A stretch of 32,000 bases of DNA, taken from the NCBI GenBank assembly GCA_964536865.1, contig CAZHYN010000002.1, positions 97,772-129,771 on the forward strand. Direction: 5' to 3'. This DNA comes from an uncultured Planctomycetia bacterium (GTDB lineage Bacteria > Omnitrophota > Gorgyraeia > Duberdicusellales > 4484-171). The notes under the pieces were generated by a model. The model saw nothing but the letters and a program-made list of their open reading frames with translations, was not told where the DNA came from and searched no databases. Of the stretch, positions 12,153-28,000 are shown piece by piece; position 1 is the first letter of the stretch; each line of letters begins with the position of its first letter. A program made the position numbers and the translations under genes.

Positions 12153-13235
12153 CTAAAGATTTACGGTTCTTACAAAATGTAAAGGAGTTCTTTCCTTTAT
12201 TAATCCCTTTAGGCGCAAACTGACCACAGTCTTGTTTACCATATCAAAACTTAAGCCAGTCTTTAAAATAAGTTCCTCTAAGTGAGTTCCTTTTTCTGAA
12301 ATAGCTTCTAACGTCCTTCTCTCCTGAGGAGAAAGAGATAATCCCCTTTTGCCTTTGTGAGCTTCTATCTCTATATCTAAGTTTAGTTCTTCTAAGATAT
12401 CTTCTATACCCTCCACTAACTTTGCTCCTTCTCTTATAAGAAAATTAGTCCCTTTACTCAAAGGAGAATTAGCCTGCCCGGGAAGAGCAAAGACCTCACG
12501 ATTCTGTTCACAGGCGTAGCGAGCAGTAATTAAAGCCCCGCTCTTAGCAGAGGCTTCAACTACCAGTACCCCCTTAGAAAGTCCACTTATTATCCTATTA
12601 CGCCGGGGAAAATTCTCTCTTAACGGTGGCTCAAAGAGAGAGAATTCACTAACTAAAGCTCCTTCTTCTGAAATCTTGTAAGCTAACTTCCTGTTCTCTT
12701 TAGGATAGAGATTAAGAAGACCACTTCCTAATACAGCAACCGTTTTCCCTCCTCTTAAGGCAGATCTGTGAACCTGAGTATCTATTCCTCGAGCTAAACC
12801 AGAAACAACTACTATCCCTAAAGAGGCGAGACCAAAAGAAAACCTTTCTGCCATACTCAAACCGTAAACAGTAGGTATCCTACTTCCTACAATAGCAAAA
12901 CATATTTGACTTAATACCTCTCTTTCTCCTTTAACGTAGAGGACAGGGGGAGCAAAAACTATCTCTTTAAGAAGAGGGGGATAATCTTGAGAAAAAATAT
13001 CTATAATCTCTATCCCTTCTTTTTCTGCAATCTCTAATTCCTTCTCTATCTGGAATGAGTTCTTTACTGAGAAAAACTTTTCTATCTCATAATCTTTAAA
13101 GTGTAGCTTCTCTCTTAGAGATCCGCTACCCATTTTTAGAATTTCATCAGGGTCAGCAAAAATAGAAACTGCTCTTTGAATCTTTTGAGGCGATATCTTT
13201 ATGTGATTAAGCAGAAGGAGTGATTTTTTTATCAT
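12153..13235 (-). CDS. dprA: DNA processing protein A (Smf)
   Basis: 360 aa. Rossmann-like core GLARGIDTQVHRSALRGGKTVAVLGSGL and FPRRNRIISGLS, plus a C-terminal winged-helix-like tail. The annotated start overlaps aroK by 29 nt, so the exact start is uncertain. Confidence 0.9.
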   Translation of the reverse strand: MIKKSLLLLNHIKISPQKIQRAVSIFADPDEILKMGSGSLREKLHFKDYEIEKFFSVKNSFQIEKELEIAEKEGIEIIDIFSQDYPPLLKEIVFAPPVLYVKGEREVLSQICFAIVGSRIPTVYGLSMAERFSFGLASLGIVVVSGLARGIDTQVHRSALRGGKTVAVLGSGLLNLYPKENRKLAYKISEEGALVSEFSLFEPPLRENFPRRNRIISGLSKGVLVVEASAKSGALITARYACEQNREVFALPGQANSPLSKGTNFLIREGAKLVEGIEDILEELNLDIEIEAHKGKRGLSLSPQERRTLEAISEKGTHLEELILKTGLSFDMVNKTVVSLRLKGLIKERTPLHFVRTVNL

Positions 13236-13737
13236 CTTTTAGAATCTCCATAATCTTATCCACCACTTGAGAGGGATTTAAACCAGAAGTATCTACTCTT
13301 AAGGGAACCTGGTGATAAAAAGGAGAACGATAAGCAAGAAGCTCCTCTATCTTTTTCTTAGGGTCAGCTACATTGAGAAGAGGACGATGCGTGTAACTTT
13401 TCGTCCTTTCATAGATTACCTCAACACTGGCTTCAAGACATACAGGTATTCCTGTAGCTTTAAGAATTTGTAAATTCTCTCTATCGATTACTATCCCTCC
13501 TCCACAGCTTACCACTAAATTTTTTCTCTCAGCAATTTCTTTTAAAACTTCTTTTTCAACTTTTCTAAAATAACTCTCTCCATATAAGGAAAATATGTCT
13601 ACAATTTTTTTGTTCTCTTTCTTTTCTATCTCTTCATCCATCTCTATAAATTCTCTATTTAGCCTTTTAGCTAAAAGCTTACCCACAGTGGTTTTGCCTG
13701 TTCCCATAAATCCTACGATATATATGTTCTTATCCAT
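13207..13737 (-). CDS. aroK: Shikimate kinase
   Basis: 176 aa. Walker A GFMGTGKTTVGKLLA, shikimate-binding SCGGG, and typical length. Confidence 0.9.
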   Translation of the reverse strand: MDKNIYIVGFMGTGKTTVGKLLAKRLNREFIEMDEEIEKKENKKIVDIFSLYGESYFRKVEKEVLKEIAERKNLVVSCGGGIVIDRENLQILKATGIPVCLEASVEVIYERTKSYTHRPLLNVADPKKKIEELLAYRSPFYHQVPLRVDTSGLNPSQVVDKIMEILKDDKKITPSA

Positions 13738-13745
13738 TTTCTCAA

Positions 13746-13774
13746 AATTTATACTACAAATGGCGATTTGTCAA
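13746..13774 (-). promoter_or_regulatory. Candidate sigma70-type promoter for the aroK operon (possibly giving a leaderless transcript)
   Basis: On the minus strand there is a perfect TTGACA (13774-13769), then either TATAAA (13753-13748, 15-nt spacer) or TAAATT (13751-13746, 17-nt spacer). The -10 element ends 8-10 nt before the aroK ATG (13737) and no Shine-Dalgarno sequence lies between them. Confidence 0.35.
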
Positions 13775-13787
13775 CTCTTAAGTAAAA

Positions 13788-13851
13788 CCCGAACCACGGG
13801 CTTACCCTCGCCCTTTCAAGGAAAGGGCGAGGTGGCTTTCTGTGGTTCGGG
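13788..13851. other. 64-nt GC-rich nested inverted repeat (outer 10-bp stem, inner 12-bp stem) between divergent promoters
   Basis: The outer arm CCCGAACCAC (13788-13797) pairs perfectly with GTGGTTCGGG (13842-13851). The inner arm CCTCGCCCTTTC (13806-13817) pairs perfectly with GAAAGGGCGAGG (13821-13832) around a 3-nt loop. Its local G+C is far above the surrounding DNA. Confidence 0.6.
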
Positions 13852-13876
13852 GTAAATACTTCAATATATATTTTAC

Positions 13877-13905
13877 TTGAAGAGAGAGTAAAGAGATGAT
13901 AAGAT
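13877..13905 (+). promoter_or_regulatory. Candidate sigma70-type promoter for the cheC / receiver-GGDEF pair
   Basis: TTGAAG (13877-13882), a 17-nt spacer, then TAAGAT (13900-13905). It is followed by the SD GGGAGGAGG and the ATG at 13928. Confidence 0.3.
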
Positions 13906-13927
13906 TGAGAAGAAAGGGAGGAGGATT

Positions 13928-14551
13928 ATGAAAGACGAAATGGATATCTTAAAAGAAGTAGGAAACACCGCTGCTGCTCATGGTAGTATTGCTCTCTCAG
14001 AAATCTTAGGGAAAAAAATCAAACTTCATCTTCCTGTTGTAGACATAATTCCTTGCAAGAATATAGGAAAAGCAATGCCTCAGGAAGGAATGAGTATAAC
14101 TCTACAAACTCAACTCTTAAGTGGTTTAGATGGGAAAGTTGTTTTTATTTTGGAGGAAAAGCAAGCCTACAAACTTATCGATATATGCTATACAGGGGGA
14201 GAGATCAAAAAAACTGGAATATTTACGGAAATGGGAATGAGTCTAATAAAAGAAGTAGGAAATGTAGTTATTGCTAGTTACATAAGTGCTTTAGGGTTCT
14301 TTCTAAGAAAATTAATTGTTCCCTCTCTACCTATACTTATAAATGCTCCACTCCAAGAGATTATAAAACTTGTAGTTGCCGGTTACGGGGAACATGACTA
14401 CGTATTGGTAGTAGAGAGTATCTTTGAAGAGTCAGAAACTAAAATAAAAGGGACTTTCTGGCTCCTTCTTGCTCCTGATTCTGTAAAGCAGATAAAGGAA
14501 GCTTGTAAGAAGCTGTTAGAAGAAGTAGGTAAAAATGATGGAGGAAACTAG
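13928..14551 (+). CDS. cheC: CheC-family CheY-P phosphatase with both active sites intact
   Basis: 207 aa. Two complete [DS]-x3-E-x2-N-x22-P motifs are present: D6-E10-N13-P36 (DILKEVGN...HLP) and SLIKEVGN followed by 22 residues and then P. Confidence 0.85.
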   Translation: MKDEMDILKEVGNTAAAHGSIALSEILGKKIKLHLPVVDIIPCKNIGKAMPQEGMSITLQTQLLSGLDGKVVFILEEKQAYKLIDICYTGGEIKKTGIFTEMGMSLIKEVGNVVIASYISALGFFLRKLIVPSLPILINAPLQEIIKLVVAGYGEHDYVLVVESIFEESETKIKGTFWLLLAPDSVKQIKEACKKLLEEVGKNDGGN

Positions 14552-15467
14552 TAACATCTTAATCTTTACTCCGGATTCCGAACTAAAGGAGTATATCCAA
14601 AAACTTATCAAAGGAGAAGGTTATGAGGTGGATGAAGTCAATCAATTAGAGATGCTTCAGGAGAAGCTATCTCAAGAGAAAGTGGGACTTCTTCTCATTG
14701 ATTCCATGGGAAGCAGTACCATAGATATATGTAAAAAAGTAAGATCTGATTTTACGTTACGCCATATTCCTATAATTGTAATAGTGGAAAAGGAAAGTAC
14801 TATAGAAAAGATAAAAGTTATTTATGCGGGAGCTGACGACTATGTAGAAAAACCTATTAATGCAGGAGAGTTGCTTATACGGATAAAAGCAAACCTTTGG
14901 CGAGCTAACCGTGACTTAGATGCCAATCCTTTAACCAAACTTCCTGGTAATGTTTCTATATTTAGGGAGTTAGAAAAGAGACTAAGAAACAAAGAATTTT
15001 TCTGTGTAGGATATGCGGATTTAGATAAGTTTAAAGAATACAACGACTACTATGGATTTGAGTGGGGAGACAAAGTAATAAAACATACAGCTAAAATTTT
15101 AACTAATGCTCTAAAAGAAGCAGGTTCACCCAACGATTTTCTTGGACATATAGGAGGTGACGATTTCATCTTTATTACCGGCTGGGAAAGTATTAATAAT
15201 GTATGCGAAAATATCATAGAGAACTTCGATAAAACTATTCCTTCCTTCTATAAAGAGGAAGATTTAAAAAAGAGATATATTATTGTAAAAAACCGTTTAG
15301 GGAAAGTAACTTCTGTCCCTATACTCACAATCTCCATTGGAGTAGCTACTAATGAAAAGAGATCTTTAGCTCACGTGGGTCAAATAATTCAAATAGCTAC
15401 GGAATTAAAAACCTACGCTAAAACTTTTTCTAAGAGCTTGTATATAATCGATCGTCGAAGAGGTTAA
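14535..15467 (+). CDS. Response-regulator receiver (atypical) fused to a GGDEF-family domain with a GGDDF motif
   Basis: 310 aa. The REC fold has LLLID (phospho-Asp position) and YVEKP (Lys), but FTPD replaces the DD acidic pair and IVIVE replaces the conserved Thr/Ser position. The GGDEF domain has [26 protein letters not shown] and HIGGDDF. SPND sits in place of the RxxD I-site. Overlaps cheC by 17 nt. Confidence 0.85.
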
Positions 15468-17086
15468 CTACCTTCAAACTTAAATTTCTTCATTAACTCT
15501 TCCACTGACTTCGCTAGTTCACTTAGCTGCTGTGCTGAACTGACCATCTCTTCCATAGAGGTAGTCTGCTCCTGGATAGAAGCACTAGCTTCTTCTACTC
15601 CTGCAGATGTCCCTTCAATGATAGAGGCTACCTCCTCTACTGCCTTTACTCCTTCTTCAGTTCGAGCAAGCTGCTCAGATATGACTTTTACTATCTGCTG
15701 AGCCATAGTATTGGCTTCATTTACCGAAGAAATCACTTCCTTTAAAGTATTTCTTACCTCTATTACTACGTTTCTTCCTTCAGTTACTTCTTTGGAACCA
15801 ATCTCTATAGAAGAAATCGCTTTACCTATATCTTCCTGAATACTCTTTATCAAACCACCAATACGGCTAGCAGCTTGAGCAGAATTTTCTGCTAACTTTC
15901 TTATCTCATCAGCAACTACACCAAAACCTCTTCCTGCTTCTCCAGCACGTGCTGCTTCAATGGCAGCATTCAAGGATAAAAGATTAGTTTGGTCAGCAAT
16001 ATTAGTAATGGTAACAGTGATCTCTCCAATCTGTTGAGACCTTTCCTCTAAGATACGCATAACCTCCACGTTTTTATTTACCGTATCAAATACTCTATCC
16101 ATTTTTTCTGATAAAGTGGGAATTTTCTCTCCACTTAAATTTACTTGAGAAGCTGCAGAAGCAGAAACATCAGCGGTGTTTTTTGCCTTATCACCAACTT
16201 CTCTTAAGGATACATTAACCTCTCCCATAATCCTAGATACATTTTCCACCTTAACTGTCTGGTCAGTAACGCCCTTGGAGAGTTGAGCCATGGCAGCACT
16301 TATCTGCTGTATAACTTCACTCATCTGATGAGTTATATCTACAAACTGATGAGACGTCTCACTAATCTTTCTCCCCACTCTGCTGATTTCTAAAAGCGTG
16401 CCTTTCCAGAAAGAAACTATCTTATTTAGAATGTTATTCAGTTTCCCTACTTTCTCTATACTTTTCTCTATTTCCTTAGGAAATCTTCCCTCTGCTATCT
16501 CTTCAAAGATAGAAACGAAACGATCAATAGGATGAAAAAGACGAGCAGAGAGGAATTTTACTAAAAAGAAAACTAACACCACTCCTGCCAAGAGAGGAAT
16601 CACAATAGTAGTTGCTACCTTAGAAACTGCTTTTGTTACTATCTTAGAATTTTTGACTAAGGAGAGGAATCCCAATAGCTTACCTTCTTCGTCCTTTATA
16701 GGATGAAGAACACCAATCACTCTGTAGCCTAAGAGTTTCTCTATCCTCTCCTTATCTAGTTTGTTAATATCTATACTCTTATCTAACAATTTTGGGCTGC
16801 TACTAATTTCCACTCTTCCTTTCCTATCAGTAACAGCAACTACAAAATTCTGTAAAGTTTTGCTAAAAACTTTCAGGCTATCCTCTATTCCAGACTTACC
16901 CTCCTTAACCCACCTATTACTTACCGCAGCCTCTAAAACTTTTGCTAAATTCTTTAAAGCTTCTCCTTCTCGACTATAAATAACACTCTTTTGGTAGAAA
17001 AAACTAACTACACCCATAATAAAGAAAAATATGCACAGAACAGTGGTAATCCAAATAGTAATTTTATCCTTCAAAAATTTTGGCAC
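15464..17086 (-). CDS. Methyl-accepting chemotaxis protein (two TM segments, small periplasmic sensor, HAMP, MA domain)
   Basis: 540 aa. Hydrophobic segments lie at ~10-30 and ~160-180. The signalling hairpin is highly conserved: [38 protein letters not shown]. Confidence 0.9.
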
Positions 17087-17221
17087 CCCGCCCTCCTTGT
17101 TAACAACTTTTCTCGTTCATCAAAATTATATTTAAAAAAAGACGCACTCCCCCCTTTAAGGCAAAGTTTCAGGATAACACTTCCTTATCCAGAAAATTAG
17201 GCTTCTAAATTAACTAGGAAA

Positions 17222-17515
17222 TTAAGCTTCTAAAGGTAGTGTACTTACTTTCTCAAATTCAACTGCTACTTCCCACATCCCTTCCTTTTCCATCACTCTA
17301 CTAACTTTACCTCTAACAAAGAAAGAACCTATAGTGGGAAGAATTTTGAACTCTCCGTAGATAATCGAACCTATCTCCACAGGGCGAGAAAGGTTAATCT
17401 TCATTCCTCCTGCGCTAATATCAACGACCTTCCCTTCTTCTCTTACCCCCGCACAGGAAATAACTGCCTTCTCCTCCTCTACGTACCAACGATTAAATTT
17501 GCGTCTCTCTTCCAT
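17222..17515 (-). CDS. Stand-alone PilZ-domain protein (c-di-GMP binding motifs intact)
   Basis: 97 aa. RKFNR (RxxxR) at residues 5-9 and DISAGG (D-x-S-x-x-G) at residues 32-37, followed by a beta-barrel-like remainder. Confidence 0.85.
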   Translation of the reverse strand: MEERRKFNRWYVEEEKAVISCAGVREEGKVVDISAGGMKINLSRPVEIGSIIYGEFKILPTIGSFFVRGKVSRVMEKEGMWEVAVEFEKVSTLPLEA

Positions 17516-17531
17516 CTTTTATCCCTCCTTT

Positions 17532-18155
17532 CTATTCACCTTCTTTAACTCCTAAAGCCTTAAATAATTTCCTTAAAGATTCTAAATCAGGAAAAAATAA
17601 AAGGCAACCCCCAAAATCCATATCTCTTACTTTTAATTCTGTTCTTATAAAAATGGCTTCATCGCTATGCTGAGCTATATGGATGAAAAAAAAGTCCATT
17701 ATTGCTCCCACCATATCCATAGCTAATGAGGGGGTAGTATACATTATAGTAAAACCAGTCATATCAGAAAGAACATTCATATAAGCTCCTACTAAAATGT
17801 TAACCATTTCTCTCAAAGAGGAAAGGAACATGCCATCGTTAAGGTCTACTTCCTCAGGAGGTTTCCCTAACAGAGTGCTCCCTAGGATCTTACCCTCTTG
17901 AGGTGCTAAAAGAAAGAATACCCTACCAGAGATTTCTCCCTCTACCCCAATATCTAAAACAAAATATAAATCTTCCGGATTACCCAAAACTTTATGGAGA
18001 GACTCTAAAGGTACTAATTTTGTCTCAGGGAGAGTAATCTCTACTTTGCAATTAAGAAGCTCAGCTAAAGCAGTAGCGGATCTACCTGCTCCGATAGTCC
18101 CTACTTCTTTAAGAACATCTAACTGGTTCGAAGAAATTTTTTTAGTTTCATCCAT
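17532..18155 (-). CDS. CheC-family protein; first active site degenerate (N to T), second intact
   Basis: 207 aa. Site 1 reads D13-VLK-E17-VG-T20-x22-P43, with Thr in place of the catalytic Asn. Site 2 reads S-SLR-E-MV-N-x22-P and is intact. Confidence 0.85.
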   Translation of the reverse strand: MDETKKISSNQLDVLKEVGTIGAGRSATALAELLNCKVEITLPETKLVPLESLHKVLGNPEDLYFVLDIGVEGEISGRVFFLLAPQEGKILGSTLLGKPPEEVDLNDGMFLSSLREMVNILVGAYMNVLSDMTGFTIMYTTPSLAMDMVGAIMDFFFIHIAQHSDEAIFIRTELKVRDMDFGGCLLFFPDLESLRKLFKALGVKEGE

Positions 18156-19182
18156 CTTTCAAATATTCTAAAATTTTGTCAGGTATTTTACTTACAGGTA
18201 AAATTTCATCAGCCAATTTTGCCTCTATTACTGCCCTAGGCATCCCATAAACCACACAACTTGCCTCATCCTGAGCAATTATCCTACCTCCTTTTTCTTT
18301 CACCTTCCTTGCTCCTTCTAACCCATCTTTACCCATTCCAGTAAGAATTACCACTACTATCTCACCATCAAATACTTCCGCCAAAGAAGTTAAAGTCACG
18401 TCTATCGCTGGTCTTACATAGTTTACCAATGCTGTCTCATCTAATCTTATGCAATAACCCTCTAGGGCCTTTTCTATCATCATATGATATCCTGAGGGAG
18501 CTACAAATCCTGCTCCTTTTATAAGAAAATCCCCATCTTCGGCTTCCTTTATCTTGATATTTGAATACCACGAAAGTCTCTCAGCAAAACTTCTGGTAAA
18601 TCCTGGGGGCATATGTTGAATAATCAGAAAAGTATAATCACAGTAGGAAGGAAATGTTTGCATTAAATCTAGTATGGCTTTAGGGCCACCAGTAGAAGCG
18701 CCTATTGCCACTATCTTTTTTACTGCTAGTTTCTCTTTATCAACGACTTTCTCTACCGTTAGAGAAAGAAACTTATTTAAATCTACCCTAGCAGTTAACT
18801 TAATCTTGGAGATTATTTCCTCTCTAAAATTATATAAATCTAAGGATACTTCCCCGCTAGGTTTAGGAATGAAGTCCAATGCTCCAAGTTCTAACGCTTT
18901 CATAGTAACTTTTGCCCCTCTCTGGGTATAGGCGGAGAGCATAACTACTCGTGTAGGGAAATTATGCATAAGTTCTTCTAGTACTTTCAACCCACTTATA
19001 TCAGGAAGATTTACATCCAAGGTCACTACATCGGGCTTCAGCTCTGGAATCCTTTGGAGAGCCTCTCTTCCCAACTTAGTAGATCCTACCACTTCTATTT
19101 GAGGCTCACTGGATAAAATATCTCCTATTACTTTCTGCATTAAAATTGAATCTTCTACAATAAAGACTCTTACTTTTCTCAT
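18148..19182 (-). CDS. cheB: Chemotaxis response regulator protein-glutamate methylesterase
   Basis: 344 aa. REC domain (FIVEDS, TLDVNLPD) plus a methylesterase domain with GASTGGP, QHMPPGFT and TGMGKDG. Confidence 0.92.
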   Translation of the reverse strand: MRKVRVFIVEDSILMQKVIGDILSSEPQIEVVGSTKLGREALQRIPELKPDVVTLDVNLPDISGLKVLEELMHNFPTRVVMLSAYTQRGAKVTMKALELGALDFIPKPSGEVSLDLYNFREEIISKIKLTARVDLNKFLSLTVEKVVDKEKLAVKKIVAIGASTGGPKAILDLMQTFPSYCDYTFLIIQHMPPGFTRSFAERLSWYSNIKIKEAEDGDFLIKGAGFVAPSGYHMMIEKALEGYCIRLDETALVNYVRPAIDVTLTSLAEVFDGEIVVVILTGMGKDGLEGARKVKEKGGRIIAQDEASCVVYGMPRAVIEAKLADEILPVSKIPDKILEYLKDG

Positions 19183-19676
19183 ACTTCTTTTTCTCCCTGA
19201 AACATCGTCTTTATTCTAACTTTGCCTGTATCTAAATCAAAGAAAATAGTTCTTCCGTAGCTACCCCCAGTATCCTCTCCTACAATTTTGATCCCATGAG
19301 AAGCCAAAATCTCTCTTGCCTTATCGATATTTTTACCTCCTACATTAAAAGGGCTATCTAAAGGAATAGAACTAAACATATGAGCTCCACCGAAAAGTTT
19401 TGCTACCAGTTGATGAGGTTGAACCCCCCGCTTCTTTAACTCATCAATCATAATGCCCACGGCAGAATCTACATACTTAGCAGGGTTAAACTTAGCTTTC
19501 GCATCAGCGATAGAAGGCAACATAGCATGAGCTAAAGCTCCTATCTTTTTTCTAGGTTCATAGACAGCGATACCAATACAAGATCCTAACCCCCGAGTGA
19601 CGAGTACATCTGGAAAGCTTCCTACTCTTACCTCTGCCATACCTACTTCTATAAGATTACCTTTCCTTGCCTCCAT
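19179..19676 (-). CDS. cheD: Chemoreceptor glutamine deamidase
   Basis: 165 aa. GLGSCIGI (catalytic Cys), HAMLP (His) and typical size. ATGA-type overlap with cheB. Confidence 0.9.
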   Translation of the reverse strand: MEARKGNLIEVGMAEVRVGSFPDVLVTRGLGSCIGIAVYEPRKKIGALAHAMLPSIADAKAKFNPAKYVDSAVGIMIDELKKRGVQPHQLVAKLFGGAHMFSSIPLDSPFNVGGKNIDKAREILASHGIKIVGEDTGGSYGRTIFFDLDTGKVRIKTMFQGEKEV

Positions 19677-19691
19677 GTTGAGAGATTTCTC

Positions 19692-20066
19692 CTATTCTCC
19701 TAACACTCTCCTTATAGCTTCTACAACACGAGATGGCTGAAATGGTTTTACGATAAAGTCCTTAGCTCCTGCCTGAATTGCTTCTACTACTAAAGCGTGC
19801 TGGCCCATAGCAGAAACCATTACAATTTTAGCATTAGGATCAATCCGCATAATCTCCTTTACCGCTCCAATCCCATCGATCTCTTCCATCTTAGGCATAA
19901 CAATATCCATTGTAACTAAATCTGGCTTTAACTCCTTATACTTCTCAATCGCCTCTTTACCATTCTCTGCTTCGCCACAAATTTCAAAACCTTCTTTCTT
20001 TAAGATGTCTCCTAGCATCCTACGCATGAAGAGAGCATCATCAACTATTAAGATTTTTGTCGGCAT
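19692..20066 (-). CDS. cheY: Chemotaxis response regulator CheY (paralogue 1)
   Basis: 124 aa single REC domain. Closely resembles the Thermotoga/Bacillus-type CheY that I recall from memory (ILIVDDALFMR, DPNAKIVMVSAMGQ, AGAKDFIVKPFQPSRV). Confidence 0.9.
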   Translation of the reverse strand: MPTKILIVDDALFMRRMLGDILKKEGFEICGEAENGKEAIEKYKELKPDLVTMDIVMPKMEEIDGIGAVKEIMRIDPNAKIVMVSAMGQHALVVEAIQAGAKDFIVKPFQPSRVVEAIRRVLGE

Positions 20067-20095
20067 ACTAACCTCCTTTTTAACCTCGCCCTTTT

Positions 20096-20941
20096 CTATA
20101 TCTTAACAAATATTTTATCAAGTAGACTTACAGGTTTAAAATAATTCCTTAGAGAAACACCTACACTCTCTACTTTCCCGAGAACTAAGTATCCTCCCTC
20201 CTTTAAGGACTTATGTACCTCTAAGAGAATTCTCTCGCTTTCCTCTAAACTAAAATATATTCTTACATTTCTAAAAAAGACCACATCTATAAACTTTAAG
20301 GGTGGGTCAAATAGTAAGTTGTGTTTTCTAAAAGTAACCACTTCCTTTAAAGTATCTTTAACTTGATAAAGCCCTTTGCCTAAGGGAGTAAAATACTTAT
20401 TTAAAATTAGAGGATCTACATTCCTCAAAGATCTCTCTGAGTAAATACCTTCCCTGGCTTTCTTTAAAGCTTGCTCATCAATATCGGTACCGTATATTTT
20501 TAAAACAAACTTATCGTTTATATTTATATTTTTTAACTTCTCCAAAAAAATAATTGCTAAAGAATAGGGCTCCTCCCCACAAGAACACCCAGATGACCAA
20601 CACCGTATCGTTTTCTCTCTTTGCTCTCTTTTCCTCTCTATTAGAGAGGGGATACAGATATCTCTAAACGTAGCAAAGACTTCGGGATCACGGAAAAGTT
20701 CAGAAACATTTATACTGAGGTTATCAAAAAAAATATCCCATTCTTGAGGTTGTTTTTTTAATATCTGAATATAACCCAATAAATTATCCAAACCTAAATG
20801 GCTAAGTCTTAGCTTCAGTCTGCGGGTAAGAAAGCTTTTTCTATAGGAGGTTAAGTCTATTCCTCGATGTTTCCTTACAAAATTAAAGAAAAGGTCAATC
20901 TCATGGGAAGAAAAAAAATCTTTCTTTTCCACTTCCACCAT
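20096..20941 (-). CDS. cheR: Chemotaxis protein methyltransferase
   Basis: 281 aa. N-terminal helical domain and SAM-binding IRCWSSGCSCGEEPYSLA, DIDEQALKKAREGIY and FRNVRIYF. Confidence 0.9.
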   Translation of the reverse strand: MVEVEKKDFFSSHEIDLFFNFVRKHRGIDLTSYRKSFLTRRLKLRLSHLGLDNLLGYIQILKKQPQEWDIFFDNLSINVSELFRDPEVFATFRDICIPSLIERKREQREKTIRCWSSGCSCGEEPYSLAIIFLEKLKNININDKFVLKIYGTDIDEQALKKAREGIYSERSLRNVDPLILNKYFTPLGKGLYQVKDTLKEVVTFRKHNLLFDPPLKFIDVVFFRNVRIYFSLEESERILLEVHKSLKEGGYLVLGKVESVGVSLRNYFKPVSLLDKIFVKI

Positions 20942-20945
20942 GCTT

Positions 20946-21209
20946 TTAATGTTGGGGAGCCTTTTTAACCTTCTCTATTGCCTTGGTGAGCTCTTTAACT
21001 ACATCAGCTCTAAGCTGAAGTTCAAGTTCAGCTATTTTAGTGTATACTCTCCCTTTATCGGTAACCACATATTTAGAGGGGAGATTATTTAAAGCTAAAG
21101 CCATTATATCCAATGTACACTTTTCACATTTGCATACATCGTTTCTTCTGGAAAGTAAATTTTCCAAAGTATTTTTCACTATATCCTCCATGTAATTATG
21201 GCATTCCAT
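20946..21209 (-). CDS. ComFB-family (late competence development protein ComFB-like) small protein
   Basis: 87 aa. N-Y-x-E-x-x-V start, Cys cluster CKCEKC, then DIMALALNNLPSKYV, matching the ComFB (PF10719-like) core pattern C-x-C-x-x-C-x-x-D-x-x-A-x-A-L-N-x-L-P-x-x-Y as I recall it. Confidence 0.75.
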   Translation of the reverse strand: MECHNYMEDIVKNTLENLLSRRNDVCKCEKCTLDIMALALNNLPSKYVVTDKGRVYTKIAELELQLRADVVKELTKAIEKVKKAPQH

Positions 21210-21233
21210 TATCCACCTCCTTAGAAAATAGTA

Positions 21234-21256
21234 GTATAAAATTAATTATTTTATAC
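21234..21256. promoter_or_regulatory. 23-bp perfect AT-rich palindrome upstream of the comFB-like gene (candidate operator or internal promoter element)
   Basis: GTATAAAAT (21234-21242), TAATT, ATTTTATAC (21248-21256). It lies in the 77-bp cheA to comFB gap, 25 nt upstream of the comFB-like start. Confidence 0.3.
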
Positions 21257-21286
21257 GTCAATAGAAAAATCATTTTTAACTATAAA

Positions 21287-23206
21287 TTACTTTATATTAA
21301 CTACATCCAAGATTAAAGCTATCCGACCGTCACCTAAGATAGTTCCTCCTGCAATCCCTCTTATTCTTTTAACGAAGGAACCCAAAGGTTTTACTACAAT
21401 ATCCTGCTCACCTATCACTTTATCTACAACCAGACCCATACTTTTTGTTCTACCTTCTACTATCACTACCGAGATTTCTTCCTTCTCGTAAGTAGCTAAT
21501 GTCTTCATCCCTAACTCCTTATCTAACCTAAGAATAGGAACAATCTCTTCTCTTACACGCATCACTTCTATATCTTTTATTCTTTTTAGCTCCGCTTCTT
21601 TTACCTTTACTGTCTCTCGGATGTTCATAAGAGGAATAGCATAAATCTGTTCTCCAATAACGACTAACATAGCTTTTATAATAGCTAAAGTTAAAGGTAA
21701 AGTAAGAATAAATTTTGTTCCCTTCCCTCGCTGCGTCTCCAAATCCAATCTTCCTCCCAGAGCATCTAACTTGTTACGTACTACATCTAATCCCACTCCT
21801 CGGCCTGATACATCAGTCACTTTCTCACTGGTAGAGAAACCAGGCATAGTAAGGATATCTAAAATTTGACGATAGTCATTTTTGGAAACCTCTTGAGGAG
21901 AAATTAGTCCTTTTTCTGCTGCAGCAGCTACCACCTTATCTATATCTATCCCCCTCCCATCGTCACTAATCTCTATTATAATATGACCCTTCTCTCGGGA
22001 TACTTTGATAAGTATCTTACCACGGGGGGGTTTACCTATTTTCCTTCTCTCTTGAGGAGTCTCTATTCCATGGTCTATAGCATTTCTAATAAGGTGTACT
22101 AAAGGATCACCTATCTCATCTAAAACTACCCTGTCTAACTCTATCTCACTGCCCACTATGTCTAAATCTACCTCCTTACCTTCTTTCCGAGATAGATCTC
22201 TTACAATCCGAGGGAAATTATCCAGGATATAAGAAACAGGTAAGAGCCTCATCTTCAATGCCTCATCCTGAAGAGAAGAGACCAATCTTTCGATAAGATA
22301 AGTGGTCTCTTCTAAAGCTGTATAATCCTTGCTTATTACAGTCTGAGTAAGTCTACTTTTAGTAATAGCTAACTCCCCCATCAGATTCATAATCTTATCT
22401 AATCGCTCTACCGGTATCCGCATACTCTGAATCTTCTTAATATAAGGGGTAGTTTTTCCTTTTTTTCTTTCTACTTTCTCAGCAGAAGAAGTGAATTTAG
22501 AAACTCTAATCTCCTTAACTTCTAAAATCTTAGAAACTTCTTCTTTGATTTTTTCTGGCGGTTCCTTAGTAGCCAAAAAGAAATGAAATGAATTTCCAAA
22601 TGTACCGGCTTTCAACTTATCCTCAGAAGGGATAACCTGGATTATTTGACCTAACATTCTCACTCTCTTAAGAATAAGAAAGGCCCTTGCCCCTTTAAGA
22701 AGACAGTCATCTTGCAGGGTTACTTCCACTTTTAAGAGTTCCTTATTCTCCTTCCTTAACTTTTTAATATACTCCTCATCTATGTGTGTTGGATATTCCT
22801 GAAGAACTTGAGGATATTCTTTTCTCTCTTCTTTAGAGACTAAACTACTTAACCTTACTAAATAGGAAGGAATATCTACAGATATAGGTTTCTCTTCTCT
22901 TAACTCCTCTACAACAGTAGTAAAGGCATCGATACTCTCAAAAACAACATCCATTATCTCAGGCGTCAGTGTTGATTTACCAGACCGGAAATTATCAAAA
23001 GTGTCCTCTAAATGATGAGCAAACTCTGCCAACTCTTTATATCCCATAGTTGCTGCCATCCCTTTAAGGGTATGCATATGTCGGAATATCTCATTTATGG
23101 ATTGTTCATCATGAGGATTCTTTTCTAAATTAACTAAAGCTTTATTTATCTCCTTCAGATACTCTTGGGACTCACTGAAGAATAGCTCACGATAATTCTT
23201 TTCCAT
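21287..23206 (-). CDS. cheA: Chemotaxis histidine kinase CheA
   Basis: 639 aa. Hpt domain with HMHTLKGMAATMG, N-box HLIRNAIDHGIE, G1 DDGRGID, G2 GRGVGLDVV, and a C-terminal CheW-like P5 domain (GLVVDKVIGEQDIVVKPL). Confidence 0.95.
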   Translation of the reverse strand: MEKNYRELFFSESQEYLKEINKALVNLEKNPHDEQSINEIFRHMHTLKGMAATMGYKELAEFAHHLEDTFDNFRSGKSTLTPEIMDVVFESIDAFTTVVEELREEKPISVDIPSYLVRLSSLVSKEERKEYPQVLQEYPTHIDEEYIKKLRKENKELLKVEVTLQDDCLLKGARAFLILKRVRMLGQIIQVIPSEDKLKAGTFGNSFHFFLATKEPPEKIKEEVSKILEVKEIRVSKFTSSAEKVERKKGKTTPYIKKIQSMRIPVERLDKIMNLMGELAITKSRLTQTVISKDYTALEETTYLIERLVSSLQDEALKMRLLPVSYILDNFPRIVRDLSRKEGKEVDLDIVGSEIELDRVVLDEIGDPLVHLIRNAIDHGIETPQERRKIGKPPRGKILIKVSREKGHIIIEISDDGRGIDIDKVVAAAAEKGLISPQEVSKNDYRQILDILTMPGFSTSEKVTDVSGRGVGLDVVRNKLDALGGRLDLETQRGKGTKFILTLPLTLAIIKAMLVVIGEQIYAIPLMNIRETVKVKEAELKRIKDIEVMRVREEIVPILRLDKELGMKTLATYEKEEISVVIVEGRTKSMGLVVDKVIGEQDIVVKPLGSFVKRIRGIAGGTILGDGRIALILDVVNIK

Positions 23207-23212
23207 AATGAT

Positions 23213-23818
23213 TTAAATTTCGGTAGCTTTAAGAAGAATCTCCAAGCCCTTAGGATTGGGTAGGAGAAAAAAATGTCCGGTAACTTTTGTTGTGGCTTCA
23301 CTAAACTCTGATTTTATAAGTAAAGCGTAAGGAGAAATATTACTCAATTCTATAAGAATGTAATCTACCATTGCTCCTGCCATATCCTCAATAACTTCAG
23401 GGACGGTGGGAACAAGTCCCCACTTTACAAACACGGAGAGTGCTCCCAGATAAGCGTTGGCTAGAATCACTCCTATTTCTTTAAGAGCTGAACGTTCCAT
23501 ATCAGTTATTACTCCTCCGTTAGATGACTTTCTATTAGTTAACAGAGAAGCTAATCCTAACGCATCTTTATGGGAAAAGATAAGAAGAATCACACTGGGA
23601 AAGTCACCTAGAATTCTTACAATTAACCCTACAACTAATTTCTCTTCTCCTACAATTTGAGGAACTTTCTCCACAGGAAGAAAATAAATTTCGGGGACAT
23701 TTATTTCTATTTTCTTATTGGTAAGTTGAGATAGAGCAGTAGCAGCGTTACCTGCACAGATATTCCCAATTTCTCTTAGAGCATCTTTTTGAAACTCATC
23801 GAACTTTATCTCTTCCAT
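23213..23818 (-). CDS. CheC/CheX-family protein; first active site intact, second degenerate (N to V)
   Basis: 201 aa. Site 1 reads D12-ALR-E16-IG-N19-x22-P42 and is intact. Site 2 reads S-ALK-E-IG-V-x22-P, with Val in place of the catalytic Asn. Confidence 0.85.
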   Translation of the reverse strand: MEEIKFDEFQKDALREIGNICAGNAATALSQLTNKKIEINVPEIYFLPVEKVPQIVGEEKLVVGLIVRILGDFPSVILLIFSHKDALGLASLLTNRKSSNGGVITDMERSALKEIGVILANAYLGALSVFVKWGLVPTVPEVIEDMAGAMVDYILIELSNISPYALLIKSEFSEATTKVTGHFFLLPNPKGLEILLKATEI

Positions 23819-24208
23819 CTACTTATTTTCCGAAGAGATGGCTTTCTTTATTACCTCCAAGAGCTTCTCTGCAGTAAAGGGTTTAATCACGAAGTCCTTA
23901 GCCCCATAAGCTAAAGCCTCCTGAACCAATCTCCTATCCCCCAAAGCGGAAATAACCACAATTTTTGCCTCAGGATCAAAGGATATAATTTCCCTTACTG
24001 CACTAATCCCATCCATTTCTTCCATCATAGGCATTACAATATCCAAAGTAACTAAATCTGGATTGAGCTCCTTATACTTCTGCACTCCCTCTAAGGCGTT
24101 GGATGCTTCTCCACAGATCTCAAAACCTGCCTTTACTAGAATATCCCTTATAAGATTTCTCATGAATAAAGCATCATCAACTATTAATACACGTTTCCTC
24201 TCCATCAT
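23819..24208 (-). CDS. cheY: Chemotaxis response regulator CheY (paralogue 2)
   Basis: 129 aa single REC domain (LIVDDALFMR, TLDIVMP, KIVVISALG, AKDFVIKPF). Its stop abuts the start of the CheC-like gene. Confidence 0.9.
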   Translation of the reverse strand: MMERKRVLIVDDALFMRNLIRDILVKAGFEICGEASNALEGVQKYKELNPDLVTLDIVMPMMEEMDGISAVREIISFDPEAKIVVISALGDRRLVQEALAYGAKDFVIKPFTAEKLLEVIKKAISSENK

Positions 24209-24213
24209 TACTT

Positions 24214-24241
24214 ATTATACCTTCTTCTTAAAAATCCACAA
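24214..24241 (-). promoter_or_regulatory. Candidate promoter at the head of the che operon
   Basis: On the minus strand: TTGTGG (24241-24236), a 16-nt spacer, then a perfect TATAAT (24219-24214). The -10 ends 5 nt before the ATGATG start (24208 and 24205). The -35 is weak and the background is AT-rich, so confidence is low. Confidence 0.25.
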
Positions 24242-24250
24242 TAAAAAACT

Positions 24251-25411
24251 TTACTTAGTATACTTTTTTATAAGACTCAGAGCAATTATATTCTTCTGAA
24301 TCTGATTGGTCCCTTCATATATCTGAGTAATCTTAGCATCGCGCATGAATTTCTCTATTCCATACTCACGCATATACCCGTAACCTCCAAAAATCTGCAC
24401 AGCTTCAGTAGTAACTTCCATAGCAACATCGGAAGCAAAAAGCTTTGCACAAGCAGAGGCTGCTCCAATATCCTTCTTACCTCTATCTACCATAGAGGCA
24501 ACAGCGTAAACTAAGCTTCTTGCTGCTTCTATTTTCGTAGCCATATCTGCTAGCATCCATTGAATTCCCTGAAAAGAAGTGATAACCTTACCAAACTGGA
24601 CTCTTTTGTGGGCGTACTCTACGGCTAACTCTAACGACCCTTGAGCAATACCTACCGCTTGAGCAGCTACCCCTGGTCGAGATTGCTCAAATGTCTTCAT
24701 AGTAACAATGAATCCTGTGCCCTCTTTCCCTCCTAAAAGGTTCTCTGCAGGAACTTTTGCTTCGTTAAAGATAAGCTCCCTGGTAGAAGAAGCTCTTATT
24801 CCCATCTTTTCTTCTTTCTTACCAAATTCAAAACCCCCAGCTCCTTTCTCTATAATAAAAGCAGACATTCCTCTCGGTCCTCTCTTTTTGTCAGTAACAG
24901 CAATCACGGTATAGATATCTGCTTCTCCTCCATTAGTAATAAAATGTTTAGTGCCATTAAGAATATAAGAATCACCTTCTTTCCTTGCAGTAGTCTTTAC
25001 TGCTGCAGCGTCAGAGCCTGCTTCTGGCTCAGTAAGACAAAAAGCAGCTAATTTTTCTCCCGAAGCAATACTAGGCAGATACCTTTTTTTCTGCTCTTCG
25101 GTACCAAACAAAAGGATAGGAAACATACCTAAGAAAGAGGCAGCATAAGAAGCAGCAATTCCTCCGTCTATACGAGAAATTTCTTCAGTAGCGATACACA
25201 ACTCAAGTAATCCTCCCCCCATTCCTCCATACTCTTGGGGAATACATATCCTAAAAAGATCAGACTGAGCTAAAACTTCCATAATAAAACGAGGGAATTC
25301 TTCCTTCTCATCAAACTCTCTCGATACTGGCTTAATCTTCGTTTCAGCAACTTGCCGACACAAATCTTTAAGCATTAACTGTTCTTCAGTTAACTGATAC
25401 TCCACAAACAT
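24251..25411 (-). CDS. Acyl-CoA dehydrogenase (short/medium-chain, butyryl-CoA dehydrogenase-like)
   Basis: 386 aa. FCLTEPEAGSDAA, GTKHFITNG, and the C-terminal QIYEGTNQIQ containing the catalytic Glu. Confidence 0.92.
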   Translation of the reverse strand: MFVEYQLTEEQLMLKDLCRQVAETKIKPVSREFDEKEEFPRFIMEVLAQSDLFRICIPQEYGGMGGGLLELCIATEEISRIDGGIAASYAASFLGMFPILLFGTEEQKKRYLPSIASGEKLAAFCLTEPEAGSDAAAVKTTARKEGDSYILNGTKHFITNGGEADIYTVIAVTDKKRGPRGMSAFIIEKGAGGFEFGKKEEKMGIRASSTRELIFNEAKVPAENLLGGKEGTGFIVTMKTFEQSRPGVAAQAVGIAQGSLELAVEYAHKRVQFGKVITSFQGIQWMLADMATKIEAARSLVYAVASMVDRGKKDIGAASACAKLFASDVAMEVTTEAVQIFGGYGYMREYGIEKFMRDAKITQIYEGTNQIQKNIIALSLIKKYTK

Positions 25412-25425
25412 CTCCCGCCTCCTTC

Positions 25426-25884
25426 TTAGGAATTAATCTTTAAAATAAACGCTTTCTCTTTACAATGAGGAAAATAAGGACAAGTTACACATTCACTCCA
25501 AATCTTATGAGGCAGTTTCTCTTTAGGTATCTTTTTAAAACCTAATCTTCTAAAAAACGCTCCTACAAAAGTTAAAGCAAAAACTCTCTTAACCCCTAAA
25601 GATTTAGCTTCTTCTATACATACGGAGACTAACTTCTTCCCTATACCTTTTCTTTGATATTCTTTAACCACTACCAAAGATTTAATCTCTGCTAAATCAT
25701 CCCATCCCACAATATGAAGAGCACAGGCACCCACAATTTTTCTTCTTTCTTGATAAACCCAAAAGTCTCTAATATGCTCATAGATATAGTTGAGAGAACG
25801 AGAAAGAACTTTTCCCTCTTTTGCCCAAAAGGCTATAAGACGGTAAATTTTTTCTGCATCGGTAATTTTTGCTCTTCGAAGCAT
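25426..25884 (-). CDS. GNAT acetyltransferase, ArgA-like (short N-acetylglutamate synthase-type)
   Basis: 152 aa. IR-x-A-x-x-x-D start, LAEIKSLVVVKEYQRKGIGKKL (acetyl-CoA Q/R-x-x-G-x-G motif), and the C-terminal LPHKIWSECVTCPYFPHC typical of this subfamily. Confidence 0.8.
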   Translation of the reverse strand: MLRRAKITDAEKIYRLIAFWAKEGKVLSRSLNYIYEHIRDFWVYQERRKIVGACALHIVGWDDLAEIKSLVVVKEYQRKGIGKKLVSVCIEEAKSLGVKRVFALTFVGAFFRRLGFKKIPKEKLPHKIWSECVTCPYFPHCKEKAFILKINS

Positions 25885-26527: not shown

Positions 26528-26920
26528 TTACTTTCCCACCAAAATCTTATCTACCACCTCTATTAATTGCTCAGGGGTAAAGGGTTTAGCTAAGAGTTGA
26601 TACTTTCCACCCGAAGGATAAAGTCTTCTTATCTCTTCTTCTCGAATTAAACAGGTGAGAAAGATAACAGGTATCTTTTTGGTCAAAAAATCTTCTTGAA
26701 GACTTTGAGCCATGGTAGTTCCATCCATTATTGGCATAAGAATATCTAGGATGATTAAATCAGGAAGGATCTCTTTTGCTTTCTTTAACCCATCCTCTCC
26801 ATTACGGGCACCTATTACTTGATAACCTTTTTGTGTAAGGATGCGCTCTACTGCCTCTACAATATAGGGTTCATCATCTACCACTAAAACTTTTTTTTCC
26901 ACATTCACCTCCTTATCCAA
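26528..26920 (-). CDS. Stand-alone response regulator (receiver domain only)
   Basis: 130 aa. Canonical VLVVDDEP, ILDILMPIMDG, IFLT and LAKPF residues. Confidence 0.9.
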   Translation of the reverse strand: MDKEVNVEKKVLVVDDEPYIVEAVERILTQKGYQVIGARNGEDGLKKAKEILPDLIILDILMPIMDGTTMAQSLQEDFLTKKIPVIFLTCLIREEEIRRLYPSGGKYQLLAKPFTPEQLIEVVDKILVGK

Positions 26921-26941
26921 ATTAAATCTCTCATTTTATTG

Positions 26942-28000
26942 TCACTCTCCGATTTTAGTAAAATAGATAGTTTGGGTAGGATAGGCAAACTCTATACCAC
27001 GTTTTTCGAATTCTTCTTTTATAGCAAAGTTAATTTCCTGTTGAATATCCATATATTTGTTATAATCACTTCCTATAACGTAATAAACTATCTCAAAAAT
27101 TAGACTAAAATCACCATAAGAGAAAAAATGTGCCCTATCAAAAACTGCATCCTTCACATTTTTAATAATACTCTCAATTATCTTAGGTATCTCTTTCAAT
27201 TTTTCTAAGGGAGTACTATAAACTACCCCAATGCGAAAAAGAACCCTCCTTTTTTCCATACGTTTGTAGTTTCTTACCCGAGAATCGGTAAGGTCAGTAT
27301 TGGAAAAAACTAACTGCTCCCCACTTAAGCTCCTTATCCTGGTAGTCTTAGCCCCAATGTACTCTACCGTACCTAAGTAGTCATCAATGATAATAAAGTC
27401 TCCTACCTCAAAGGGACGATCAAAAATTATAGAGAAATAGCTGAACAAATCTTTTAGGATTGCCTGAGCTGCTAAACCTACAGCTATGCCTCCAATTCCT
27501 AAACCAGCAATTACCGTAGAGATTTTAAACCCTAAGTTATCTAAGAAAAAGACGATAGCTAATCCCCAGATAACTACCCTGATCACCCTTAAAATCCCTT
27601 TAAGGCTCCGCTGTAACGCCACATCTTTACCTCGCTTTATCCAGTAAATCTCGAAAATATAACTTATAACTTCTCCCAGAAGACGAGCCCCTGCTAACGT
27701 TAAAATAGCTATTCCTAAAATATTAATTACTTTTCTTAAGTAGGGATGTAACTTCAGGATATTCACACTGATATAGAATGCCCCCCAATAAAGCAAAGGC
27801 AGACCAATTTTTTCTATGAGAGCTATGATGAAATCGTCAATAGTGGTTTTACTTTTCTGAGCCCATTCCTTAAGCCGCCTAAGAGCTATTCTCTTAAAGA
27901 CTCTAATAATAAAAATTGCAACAGAAAGGGTAAGAAGAAAAATAAAATAACTTAATAAGTGATTACCAAAAAATGTAATGTCTAAAAAACTATCCCCCAT
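26942..28000 (-). CDS. Mechanosensitive ion channel, MscS family
   Basis: 352 aa. Several N-terminal TM helices, then the MscS core GIGGIAVGLAAQAILKDLFS and PFEVGDFIIIDDYLGTVEYIGAKTTRIRSLSGEQLVFSNTDL. Confidence 0.88.
   Translation of the reverse strand: MGDSFLDITFFGNHLLSYFIFLLTLSVAIFIIRVFKRIALRRLKEWAQKSKTTIDDFIIALIEKIGLPLLYWGAFYISVNILKLHPYLRKVINILGIAILTLAGARLLGEVISYIFEIYWIKRGKDVALQRSLKGILRVIRVVIWGLAIVFFLDNLGFKISTVIAGLGIGGIAVGLAAQAILKDLFSYFSIIFDRPFEVGDFIIIDDYLGTVEYIGAKTTRIRSLSGEQLVFSNTDLTDSRVRNYKRMEKRRVLFRIGVVYSTPLEKLKEIPKIIESIIKNVKDAVFDRAHFFSYGDFSLIFEIVYYVIGSDYNKYMDIQQEINFAIKEEFEKRGIEFAYPTQTIYFTKIGE

Follow-up and report, generated by a model that had tools for sequence, protein, structure and literature searches.

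The Wsp system of Pseudomonas is a chemotaxis (Che)-like pathway whose response regulator, WspR, combines a receiver (REC) domain with a GGDEF domain. It employs a CheA-REC hybrid kinase and two CheW-like proteins and contains no CheC, CheD, CheY, PilZ, or ComFB, and WspR carries a GGEEF motif and an RxxD inhibitory site (I-site). Here, we describe a che locus from Candidatus Omnitrophota (contig CAZHYN010000002.1) that lies in a stretch of DNA of 32 kilobases (kb), hereafter called the window, and in which genes for a REC-GGDEF protein with the variant motif GGDDF (REC-GGDDF), a single-domain PilZ protein, and a ComFB-family protein stand in or beside one operon of chemotaxis genes (Table 1). 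On balance, we lean toward the view that this is a chemosensory pathway with a dedicated circuit of the second messenger cyclic di-GMP (c-di-GMP) wired into it.

The locus exhibits similarities to Wsp in that a Che-like pathway is combined with a REC-GGDEF response regulator, for which WspR is the top structural match, but there are also clear differences. The window encodes three CheC proteins, a CheD, and two CheY proteins, its GGDEF-type domain has a GGDDF motif and no I-site, and candidate c-di-GMP receptors are encoded in the operon itself. Because its CheA carries no REC domain, and so is no hybrid kinase, and because CheC, CheD, and CheY are present, the pathway does not belong to the Wsp family. 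DgcR of Leptospira and PleD of Caulobacter share with the window protein the architecture of REC domain, helical linker, and GGDEF domain but, unlike it, have a GGEEF motif and an I-site, and we know of no CheC-like partner for either of them. Nor, to our knowledge, does the gene mapZ of Pseudomonas aeruginosa lie inside a che operon.

The MapZ protein, a single-domain PilZ, is a small c-di-GMP receptor that inhibits the methyltransferase CheR1 and alters the methylation of methyl-accepting chemotaxis proteins (MCPs; PMC6370697). The same logic is proposed here for ComFB and CheR, with the difference that the CheR-directed receptor would have the ComFB fold, whereas the PilZ protein of the window lacks the CheR1-binding helices of MapZ. 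In Vibrio cholerae, the PilZ protein PlzC stands functionally upstream of CheX, a CheC/CheX-family phosphatase of phosphorylated CheY (CheY-P), although its effect on motility is reported to be separable from c-di-GMP binding (PMC12799141); the likeness to Omnitrophota is one of pilZ-cheC gene adjacency, and in relatives CheW takes the place of CheC as the partner coupled to PilZ (L164). It was not until 2023–2025 that ComFB (also CdgR) was recognized as a third c-di-GMP receptor family of wide occurrence: all six family members tested bind c-di-GMP (PMC12448109), and ComFB controls motility via c-di-GMP in Bacillus and Shewanella (PMC12448109; bioRxiv 10.1101/2025.07.11.664319). The window protein has the same zinc cysteines, dimer residues, and most ligand residues as this family but differs in having Asn at R/K41. 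A ComFB-CheR architecture (UniProt A0A1G1PT98) has been noted in Omnitrophota by Samir et al. (2025; PMC12448109), a paper that describes neither a stand-alone comFB-cheR pair in che operons nor co-occurrence with REC-GGDDF and PilZ.

In the literature, we found no description of a che operon with a cyclase and both PilZ and ComFB receptors, of the REC-GGDDF family of Omnitrophota and the CheC-like partner that goes with it, or of the stand-alone comFB-cheR pair. A preliminary description of this DNA, made from the sequence, had named no precedent for such an arrangement, and this stands for the three-part circuit but not for its parts, as ComFB-CheR fusions, the Wsp logic, and links from PilZ to CheR or CheX are published. 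The locus is a real, conserved case of c-di-GMP/chemotaxis integration whose three-part grouping is new; it is not categorically new, because each of its links has a precedent in Wsp/WspR, MapZ, PlzC, or the ComFB-CheR architecture.

Composition of the Locus and Its Conservation in Relatives

Domain calls are based on scans of the open reading frames (ORFs) of the window with Pfam, at gathering cut-offs, and NCBIfam. All families of the che locus score above their Pfam cut-offs, the lowest being the CheC-like protein encoded at 13928–14551, hereafter CheCa (28.5 versus 22 bits). The thirteen ORFs are all present at their stated coordinates (13/13), and the assignments of GGDEF, PilZ, ComFB, and CheC made in the preliminary description agree with the profile searches. 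Its finer readings hold as well: comFB (20946–21209) lies between cheA and cheR; the PilZ protein has intact RxxxR and DxSxxG motifs, in the form of RKFNR and DISAGG; and the REC-GGDDF gene, with its ATG at 14535, is coupled to the CheC-like gene, with its TAG at 14549–14551, by an overlap of 17 nucleotides (nt). What it called a full Che set is matched for CheA, CheB, CheR, CheD, CheC, CheY, and MCP, but no stand-alone CheW gene occurs in the 32-kb window.

Relatives were searched for from three sides, with ComFB, REC-GGDDF, and PilZ, and co-localization was taken to mean all three within 12 kb. The three families meet in this sense in 8 distinct genomes (the window, L006, L011, L015, L165, L166, L170, and L171), with REC-GGDDF proteins that are 47–65% identical to that of the window and in at least four arrangements. 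In the window, the series CheC-PilZ-MCP converges on REC-GGDDF and the CheC-like gene, and L170 has this arrangement minus the MCP. In L006, L011, and L171, the genes run co-directionally as CheC-PilZ-CheC-like-REC-GGDDF-aroK, and L015 has PilZ and then, on the opposite strand, CheW, REC-GGDDF, and the CheC-like gene. In L166, REC-GGDDF and CheW converge on PilZ-C-B-D-Y-R-ComFB-A-Y-(ComFB-CheR fusion), single letters denoting che genes, and in L165 a ComFB-CheR fusion, REC-GGDDF, and PilZ are followed by CheW and an MCP on the opposite strand, with type IV pilus genes nearby and no CheA within 10 kb. The loci differ by inversion, by whether they include an MCP or CheW, and by fusion of ComFB with CheR; an MCP is absent at the position of the window's in L006, L011, L170, and L171 and stands beside REC-GGDDF in L163, L168, and L169.

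Such rearrangement might suggest that three unrelated signaling genes have come to lie in or beside a che operon without any shared function, the more so as gene order is not strictly conserved and, in some relatives, PilZ is missing or REC-GGDDF has another location. However, the association outlasts inversion, insertion, and fusion in the 8 genomes, in L165 the ComFB-CheR fusion, REC-GGDDF, and PilZ stand next to one another while the remainder of the operon is missing, and L164 has only the CheC-like–REC-GGDDF pair convergent on PilZ-CheW. Where REC-GGDDF lies away from the operon, it still neighbors CheW, an MCP, or PilZ. That the association survives these changes speaks for a function of the grouping and against chance, and incidental clustering is very improbable. 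In the comparison of neighborhoods that the preliminary description had proposed, cheA-comFB-cheR, cheC-pilZ, and cheC-REC-GGDDF do co-occur in the 8 Omnitrophota genomes, although their exact order is rearranged, and the chance insertion that it had considered is not borne out. Its suggestion of a chemosensory pathway that both makes and reads a second messenger is supported by profiles and neighborhoods, whereas production and binding of the messenger are predicted from residues.

Some further features of these loci concern possible inputs and outputs. In three loci that are situated apart from the che operon (L163, 11026–13241; L168, 10965–13117; L169, 11028–13360), the CheC-like and REC-GGDDF genes converge on an MCP gene that is followed by a gene for a small multihaem cytochrome c, and genes for Tat (twin-arginine translocation) and cytochrome c maturation adjoin this module, which suggests that MCP and cytochrome form a redox-sensing receptor module. 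One contig (L168/L172) carries both a che operon with ComFB and PilZ and, 21 kb away, the CheC-like–REC-GGDDF–cytochrome–MCP module, with haem and hydrogenase genes between them. Type IV pilus and secretin genes stand beside several REC-GGDDF loci (L084, 1–1777; L165, 1–3929; L166, 3528–7990 and 20047–20936) and include PilM, PilO, a secretin, and a PilB-type ATPase with a c-di-GMP-binding MshEN domain; the output of the pathway may be pili rather than flagella. In a sister clade (L004, L014, L026, L057, L061, L066, and L167), cheC and comFB are separated by a gene whose product has about 715 residues (L004, 7861–9999; L014, 7846–10005; L026, 7832–10000; L057, 6816–8984; L167, 15316–17472; also in L061 and L066). 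The product has an actin fold like those of FtsA, MreB, and PilM and a C-terminal half with no Pfam match, and it may be an output or a scaffold of the pathway.

The REC-GGDDF Protein

The protein encoded at 14535–15467 matches Response_reg (PF00072) with 46.6 bits and GGDEF (PF00990) with 57.4 bits (cut-off 23.8), and NCBIfam TIGR00254 spans its residues 144–297, with the motif reading HIGGDDF. Its family, whose named members are all Omnitrophota, numbers no fewer than 120 clusters (identity of at least 50%). In a 120-sequence alignment of the window protein and 119 homologues, which underlies all residue counts given here for this family, GHIGGDDF is essentially fixed, and residues D162, K167, N170, and D179, all found in the window protein, vary little or not at all. 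By the motif DxDxFKxxND..G..GD, we take these to correspond to D327, K332, N335, and D344 of PleD, which handle metal, phosphate, and guanine. Near-invariance of its catalytic residues is as expected of an enzyme under selection. The allosteric I-site RxxD, an optional feature of such cyclases expected five residues before the motif, is absent: the window protein reads SPND there, and family members have T, N, S, or G in place of the Arg. In the receiver, the phospho-acceptor D56 is D in 104/120 and E in 13/120, and the conserved Lys (K106) is present in 95/120.

The closest PDB sequence is that of Leptospira DgcR (6ZXM; E = 6.5e-18). An AlphaFold2 model (predicted local distance difference test, pLDDT, 91; predicted template modeling score, pTM, 0.85) shows a complete GGDEF fold, and the best PDB matches of this model in Foldseek are WspR (3BRE), DgcR, and PleD. 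In a metagenome scan with the REC-GGDDF alignment, most matches were unrelated receivers, and full-length relatives were limited to L083–L089.

As for the product, the GGDDF motif is shared with GSU1937 of Geobacter, a Hypr protein with a catalytically active GGDDF domain (PMC8835794), which has Ser at its specificity position and makes cyclic GMP-AMP (cGAMP). The window protein, in contrast, has Asp (D179) at this position, that of PleD D344, which argues for guanosine triphosphate as the substrate and predicts c-di-GMP rather than cGAMP; a Hypr-type cGAMP product was rejected on this ground. A Cas10-like cyclic-oligoadenylate synthase, which would share a GGDD motif, was also rejected (Cas10 palm2, 26 bits, below its cut-off), given the diguanylate-cyclase fold and the guanine-binding residues.

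A large family with the GGDDF motif and a His variant is thereby delimited, so far in Omnitrophota only and each member with a CheC-like partner. If active, such cyclases would widen the accepted active-site motif.

ComFB and Its Link with CheR

The ComFB protein of the window scores 95.9 bits against PF10719 (cut-off 25). Its residues were assessed by alignment to ComFB of Bacillus subtilis (4WAI) and with the residues that Samir et al. (2025; PMC12448109) list for the family. The dimer residues N5, E8, D34, N41, and Y47 (N4, E7, D33, N40, and Y46 in B. subtilis) and the zinc cysteines C26, C28, and C31 are kept, H87 is invariant in a 30-sequence alignment, and six of the seven c-di-GMP contacts (D34, N41, A37, L38, V48, and Y56; in B. 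subtilis D33, N40, A36, L37, V47, and Y55) are retained.

A genome scan with the ComFB alignment gave 80 loci, which were annotated with phmmer and with hidden Markov models (HMMs) built from the window proteins. In about 20 of them, ComFB lies directly upstream of CheR, in operons of the form Y-C-A-(...)-FB-R-Y-D-B-C; these loci carry an Omnitrophota label or its che layout, several under other bin labels. ComFB homologues of Actinomycetota, Clostridia, Goldbacteria, and other groups, in contrast, lie outside che loci. ComFB and CheR are moreover fused in single genes (L015, 6269–7360; L026, 3406–4533; L165, 8515–9627; L166, 18144–19229), in which the ComFB part retains CxCxxC...H and the dimer residues. 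The comFB-cheR pair together with these natural fusions points to CheR as a specific and testable candidate target of ComFB.

In L015, L026, and L166, the fusion paralogues occur alongside stand-alone ComFB and CheR, with which ComFB the fused ComFB domains might heterodimerize. In two Actinomycetota metagenome-assembled genomes ('Solincola'; L010, 9323–10261, and L012, 9032–10261), the ComFB homologue forms the C-terminal part of ORFs of 312 and 409 residues; the length of these ORFs may reflect an N-terminal extension or a start-codon artefact of mechanical ORF calling.

The PilZ and CheC Proteins

The PilZ protein scores 46 bits against PF07238 (cut-off 22.5), with 89 of 102 profile positions covered, and its family comprises 28 clusters, of which those named by source are all Omnitrophota. 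A PDB sequence search with it returned no significant relative, so that its family membership is drawn from the Pfam match and the motifs, which are kept in all orthologues examined. Two C-terminal helices that follow the beta-barrel of MapZ contact CheR1 (bioRxiv 10.1101/2020.02.11.943704); the PilZ protein of the window ends at residue 97, directly after the barrel, and a MapZ-type role was rejected because these helices are absent. Its gene follows cheCb by 16 nt, whereas in L164 cheW and pilZ abut. In relatives, CheW is found at the position of PilZ, after the last cheC, or adjoining REC-GGDDF (L004, 13741–14238; L015, 14195–14710; L164, 11363–11860), which hints that PilZ acts at the level of CheW or the array.

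CheCa and REC-GGDDF form the most constant unit of the system: in 12 of 15 loci, CheCa immediately precedes REC-GGDDF, the gap being mostly −16 to +10 nt. CheCa matches NCBIfam CheC_Thtogales with 89.6 bits, below the cut-off of that model, and both of its D/SxxxExxN-x22-P sites, the active sites of the CheC/CheX/FliY phosphatases (PF04509), are intact as read from the translation (DILKEVGN and SLIKEVGN); among its orthologues (n = 12), 9 keep site 2, SxIKE[IV]GN, whereas site 1 is degenerate. CheCb has Thr for the Asn of site 1 and an intact site 2, whereas CheCc has an intact site 1 and Val for the Asn of site 2. Because the paralogues differ in which ExxN site is intact, one dedicated phosphatase per receiver is suggested. 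Each of three receivers is also coupled to a CheC of its own, in that cheY2 abuts cheCc, cheB and cheCb overlap by 8 nt, and cheCa and REC-GGDDF overlap as described above.

Proposed Mechanism

In the mechanism that we propose, the MCP and CheA, together with a CheW encoded elsewhere, would phosphorylate CheY1, CheY2, CheB, and probably also the receiver of REC-GGDDF. The phosphorylated REC-GGDDF protein would dimerize and make c-di-GMP in the manner of WspR and DgcR, to be reset by its coupled CheC-like partner, and the c-di-GMP would be read by ComFB and PilZ, both predicted to bind it and both encoded in the operon. ComFB would act on the adjacent CheR and so tune receptor methylation, analogously to MapZ on CheR1, an action supported by the fusions and the adjacency of the two genes. 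For PilZ, the target would be the neighboring CheC phosphatase, CheW or the array, or a receiver domain, with PlzC on CheX and HapZ on REC as analogues. The net effect would be a second-messenger layer of feedback or memory on adaptation and on the lifetime of CheY-P.

These steps could even close into a self-contained loop, in which CheA activity drives a product-uninhibited GGDDF cyclase and the local c-di-GMP acts through ComFB on the methyltransferase and through PilZ on the CheC phosphatase or the coupling by CheW; we regard this stricter form as tentative and doubtful. If it were true, the loop would add a slower, integrating memory on top of methylation, and CheR would be the first defined protein target of ComFB. 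With its co-located REC-GGDDF and PilZ genes, the locus would be the first che operon that we could find to encode both a writer of a messenger and two kinds of reader for it, and it offers a compact system for studying the integration of chemotaxis and c-di-GMP; as the organisms are uncultivated, heterologous biochemistry is needed.

The Proposed Dedicated Circuit and Its Alternatives

Several observations speak against a circuit that both makes and reads c-di-GMP within the pathway, and they concern the cyclase, its supply of phosphate, and the receptors. Position 4 of the motif is Asp (D210) in 117/120 and not the Glu of [G/A/S]G[D/E]E[F/Y], and the conserved Arg before GG is replaced by His (H205) in 120/120; the GGDDF-EAL protein PA3258 is reported to be inactive (PMC8835794). 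The receiver has a single acidic residue after beta-1, D14 (D/E in 102/120), the first position being variable, and V, M, or I at the end of beta-4 where the canonical Thr/Ser sits; because this Thr/Ser and the first acidic residue are lacking, its phosphorylation is uncertain. In several genomes, the CheC-like and REC-GGDDF genes lie more than 10 kb from any CheA, and in L166 a PAS histidine kinase, not the CheC-like gene, stands beside REC-GGDDF, which hints at a kinase other than CheA. In the window, we see no gene for a phosphodiesterase. The sister clade mentioned above has ComFB-CheR but no PilZ, with CheW at the PilZ position. In the window ComFB, one of the three electrostatic ligand residues, R/K41, is Asn (N42), and in L015 and L166 the ligand residues D33 and N40 have been lost from the fused ComFB domains.

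The points on the cyclase would be explained if PilZ and ComFB merely read the cell-wide c-di-GMP made by other cyclases while REC-GGDDF, with its CheC-like partner, serves as a catalytically dead phosphate sink or scaffold. The non-canonical motif with His for Arg, the inactivity of PA3258, the atypical receiver, and the frequent location of the CheC-like–REC-GGDDF pair away from CheA are all consistent with this. However, it is difficult to see why a dead domain would have near-invariant substrate and metal residues across 120 sequences, the confidently modeled GGDEF fold lacks no part, and the usual route by which degenerate GGDEF domains bind c-di-GMP, the I-site, is absent. Because the GGDDF domain of GSU1937 is active, the variant motif lowers but does not exclude the predicted cyclase activity. 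A pathway confined to reading is thus unlikely, if still worth considering beside the dedicated circuit.

The points on ComFB would similarly follow if it were a nucleotide-independent, zinc-stabilized adaptor or regulatory subunit of CheR, which would leave PilZ as the sole c-di-GMP receptor here. The Asn at R/K41 would fit such a role, as would the fused paralogues that keep CxCxxC...H and the dimer residues without D33 and N40, and Samir et al. (PMC12448109) note a possible loss of binding in some members of the family. Against this, the window protein keeps D34, N41, Y47, V48, Y56, A37, and L38, and every one of the ComFB proteins tested binds c-di-GMP. Furthermore, the position of R/K41 (42 in the window protein) holds R or K in most che-linked stand-alone orthologues, and Asn is limited there to the window protein and those of L013 and L003, the latter being the closest relative; this comparison leaves out CheR rows that had been mislabeled by a fusion-contaminated ComFB HMM. 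A binding-free ComFB therefore appears rather improbable, somewhat more so than the loss of cyclase activity just discussed, and a circuit with its own writer and two readers remains the reading that we prefer.

Gene Organization and Surroundings

The minus-strand che block, which runs from cheY2 to mcp, converges on the plus-strand pair of CheC-like and REC-GGDDF genes, and the stops of mcp and REC-GGDDF overlap by 4 nt. The end of comFB is separated from the start of cheR by 4 nt.

Table 1. Genes of the che locus in the window, with the profile matches on which their assignment is based.
Feature	Coordinates	Strand	Evidence and remarks
CheC-like protein (CheCa)	13928–14551	+	Pfam CheC, 28.5 bits; conserved partner of the REC-GGDDF gene
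REC-GGDEF (motif GGDDF), diguanylate-cyclase-like response regulator without I-site	14535–15467	+	Pfam, NCBIfam
MCP, end of the minus-strand operon	15464–17086	−	MCPsignal, 138.7 bits; weak HAMP
Single-domain PilZ, 97 residues	17222–17515	−	PilZ, 46 bits
CheC (CheCb)	17532–18155	−	CheC, 56.8 bits; NCBIfam CheC_Thtogales, 169 bits
CheB methylesterase (REC and CheB_methylest)	18148–19182	−	Pfam
CheD	19179–19676	−	113.7 bits
CheY (CheY1)	19692–20066	−	Pfam, NCBIfam
CheR methyltransferase	20096–20941	−	CheR, 176.5 bits; CheR_N, 48.4 bits
ComFB-family protein, 87 residues	20946–21209	−	ComFB, 95.9 bits, full length
CheA (Hpt, P2, dimerization, HATPase, CheW-like P5)	21287–23206	−	Pfam
CheC (CheCc)	23213–23818	−	CheC, 66.7 bits
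CheY (CheY2), start of the che block	23819–24208	−	Pfam

The ribosome-binding site of comFB is strong (AAGGAGGTG). The spacer of 77 nt between cheA and comFB (21210–21286, minus strand), besides this site before comFB, contains TTGACG-17-TATACT (10/12 matches), a candidate internal promoter for the transcription of comFB, cheR, and the genes that follow. A promoter and terminator scan of 13000–25500 gave counts below the shuffled expectation and is uninformative on operon structure. Rfam searches of the whole window at gathering thresholds revealed neither a c-di-GMP riboswitch nor any other RNA family, and no tRNAs were found in the window.

The locus is flanked by housekeeping genes, with aroK, dprA, topA, xerC, waaA, and lpxK on one side and genes for an acyl-CoA dehydrogenase and a GNAT protein together with pagL on the other. 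Metagenome contigs with an identical ComFB protein have the same gene order, and those close homologues for which a name is given all belong to Candidatus Omnitrophota. In addition, a stand-alone receiver of 130 residues is encoded directly upstream of, and on the same strand as, an MscS-family channel gene (26528–28000), 2.3 kb from the che block, and this pair of receiver and channel also occurs in L001. Finally, the ORF at 29280–29810 encodes a protein of 176 residues, of which the N-terminal 90 are extremely rich in Lys and Arg and are followed by a small globular C-terminal part.

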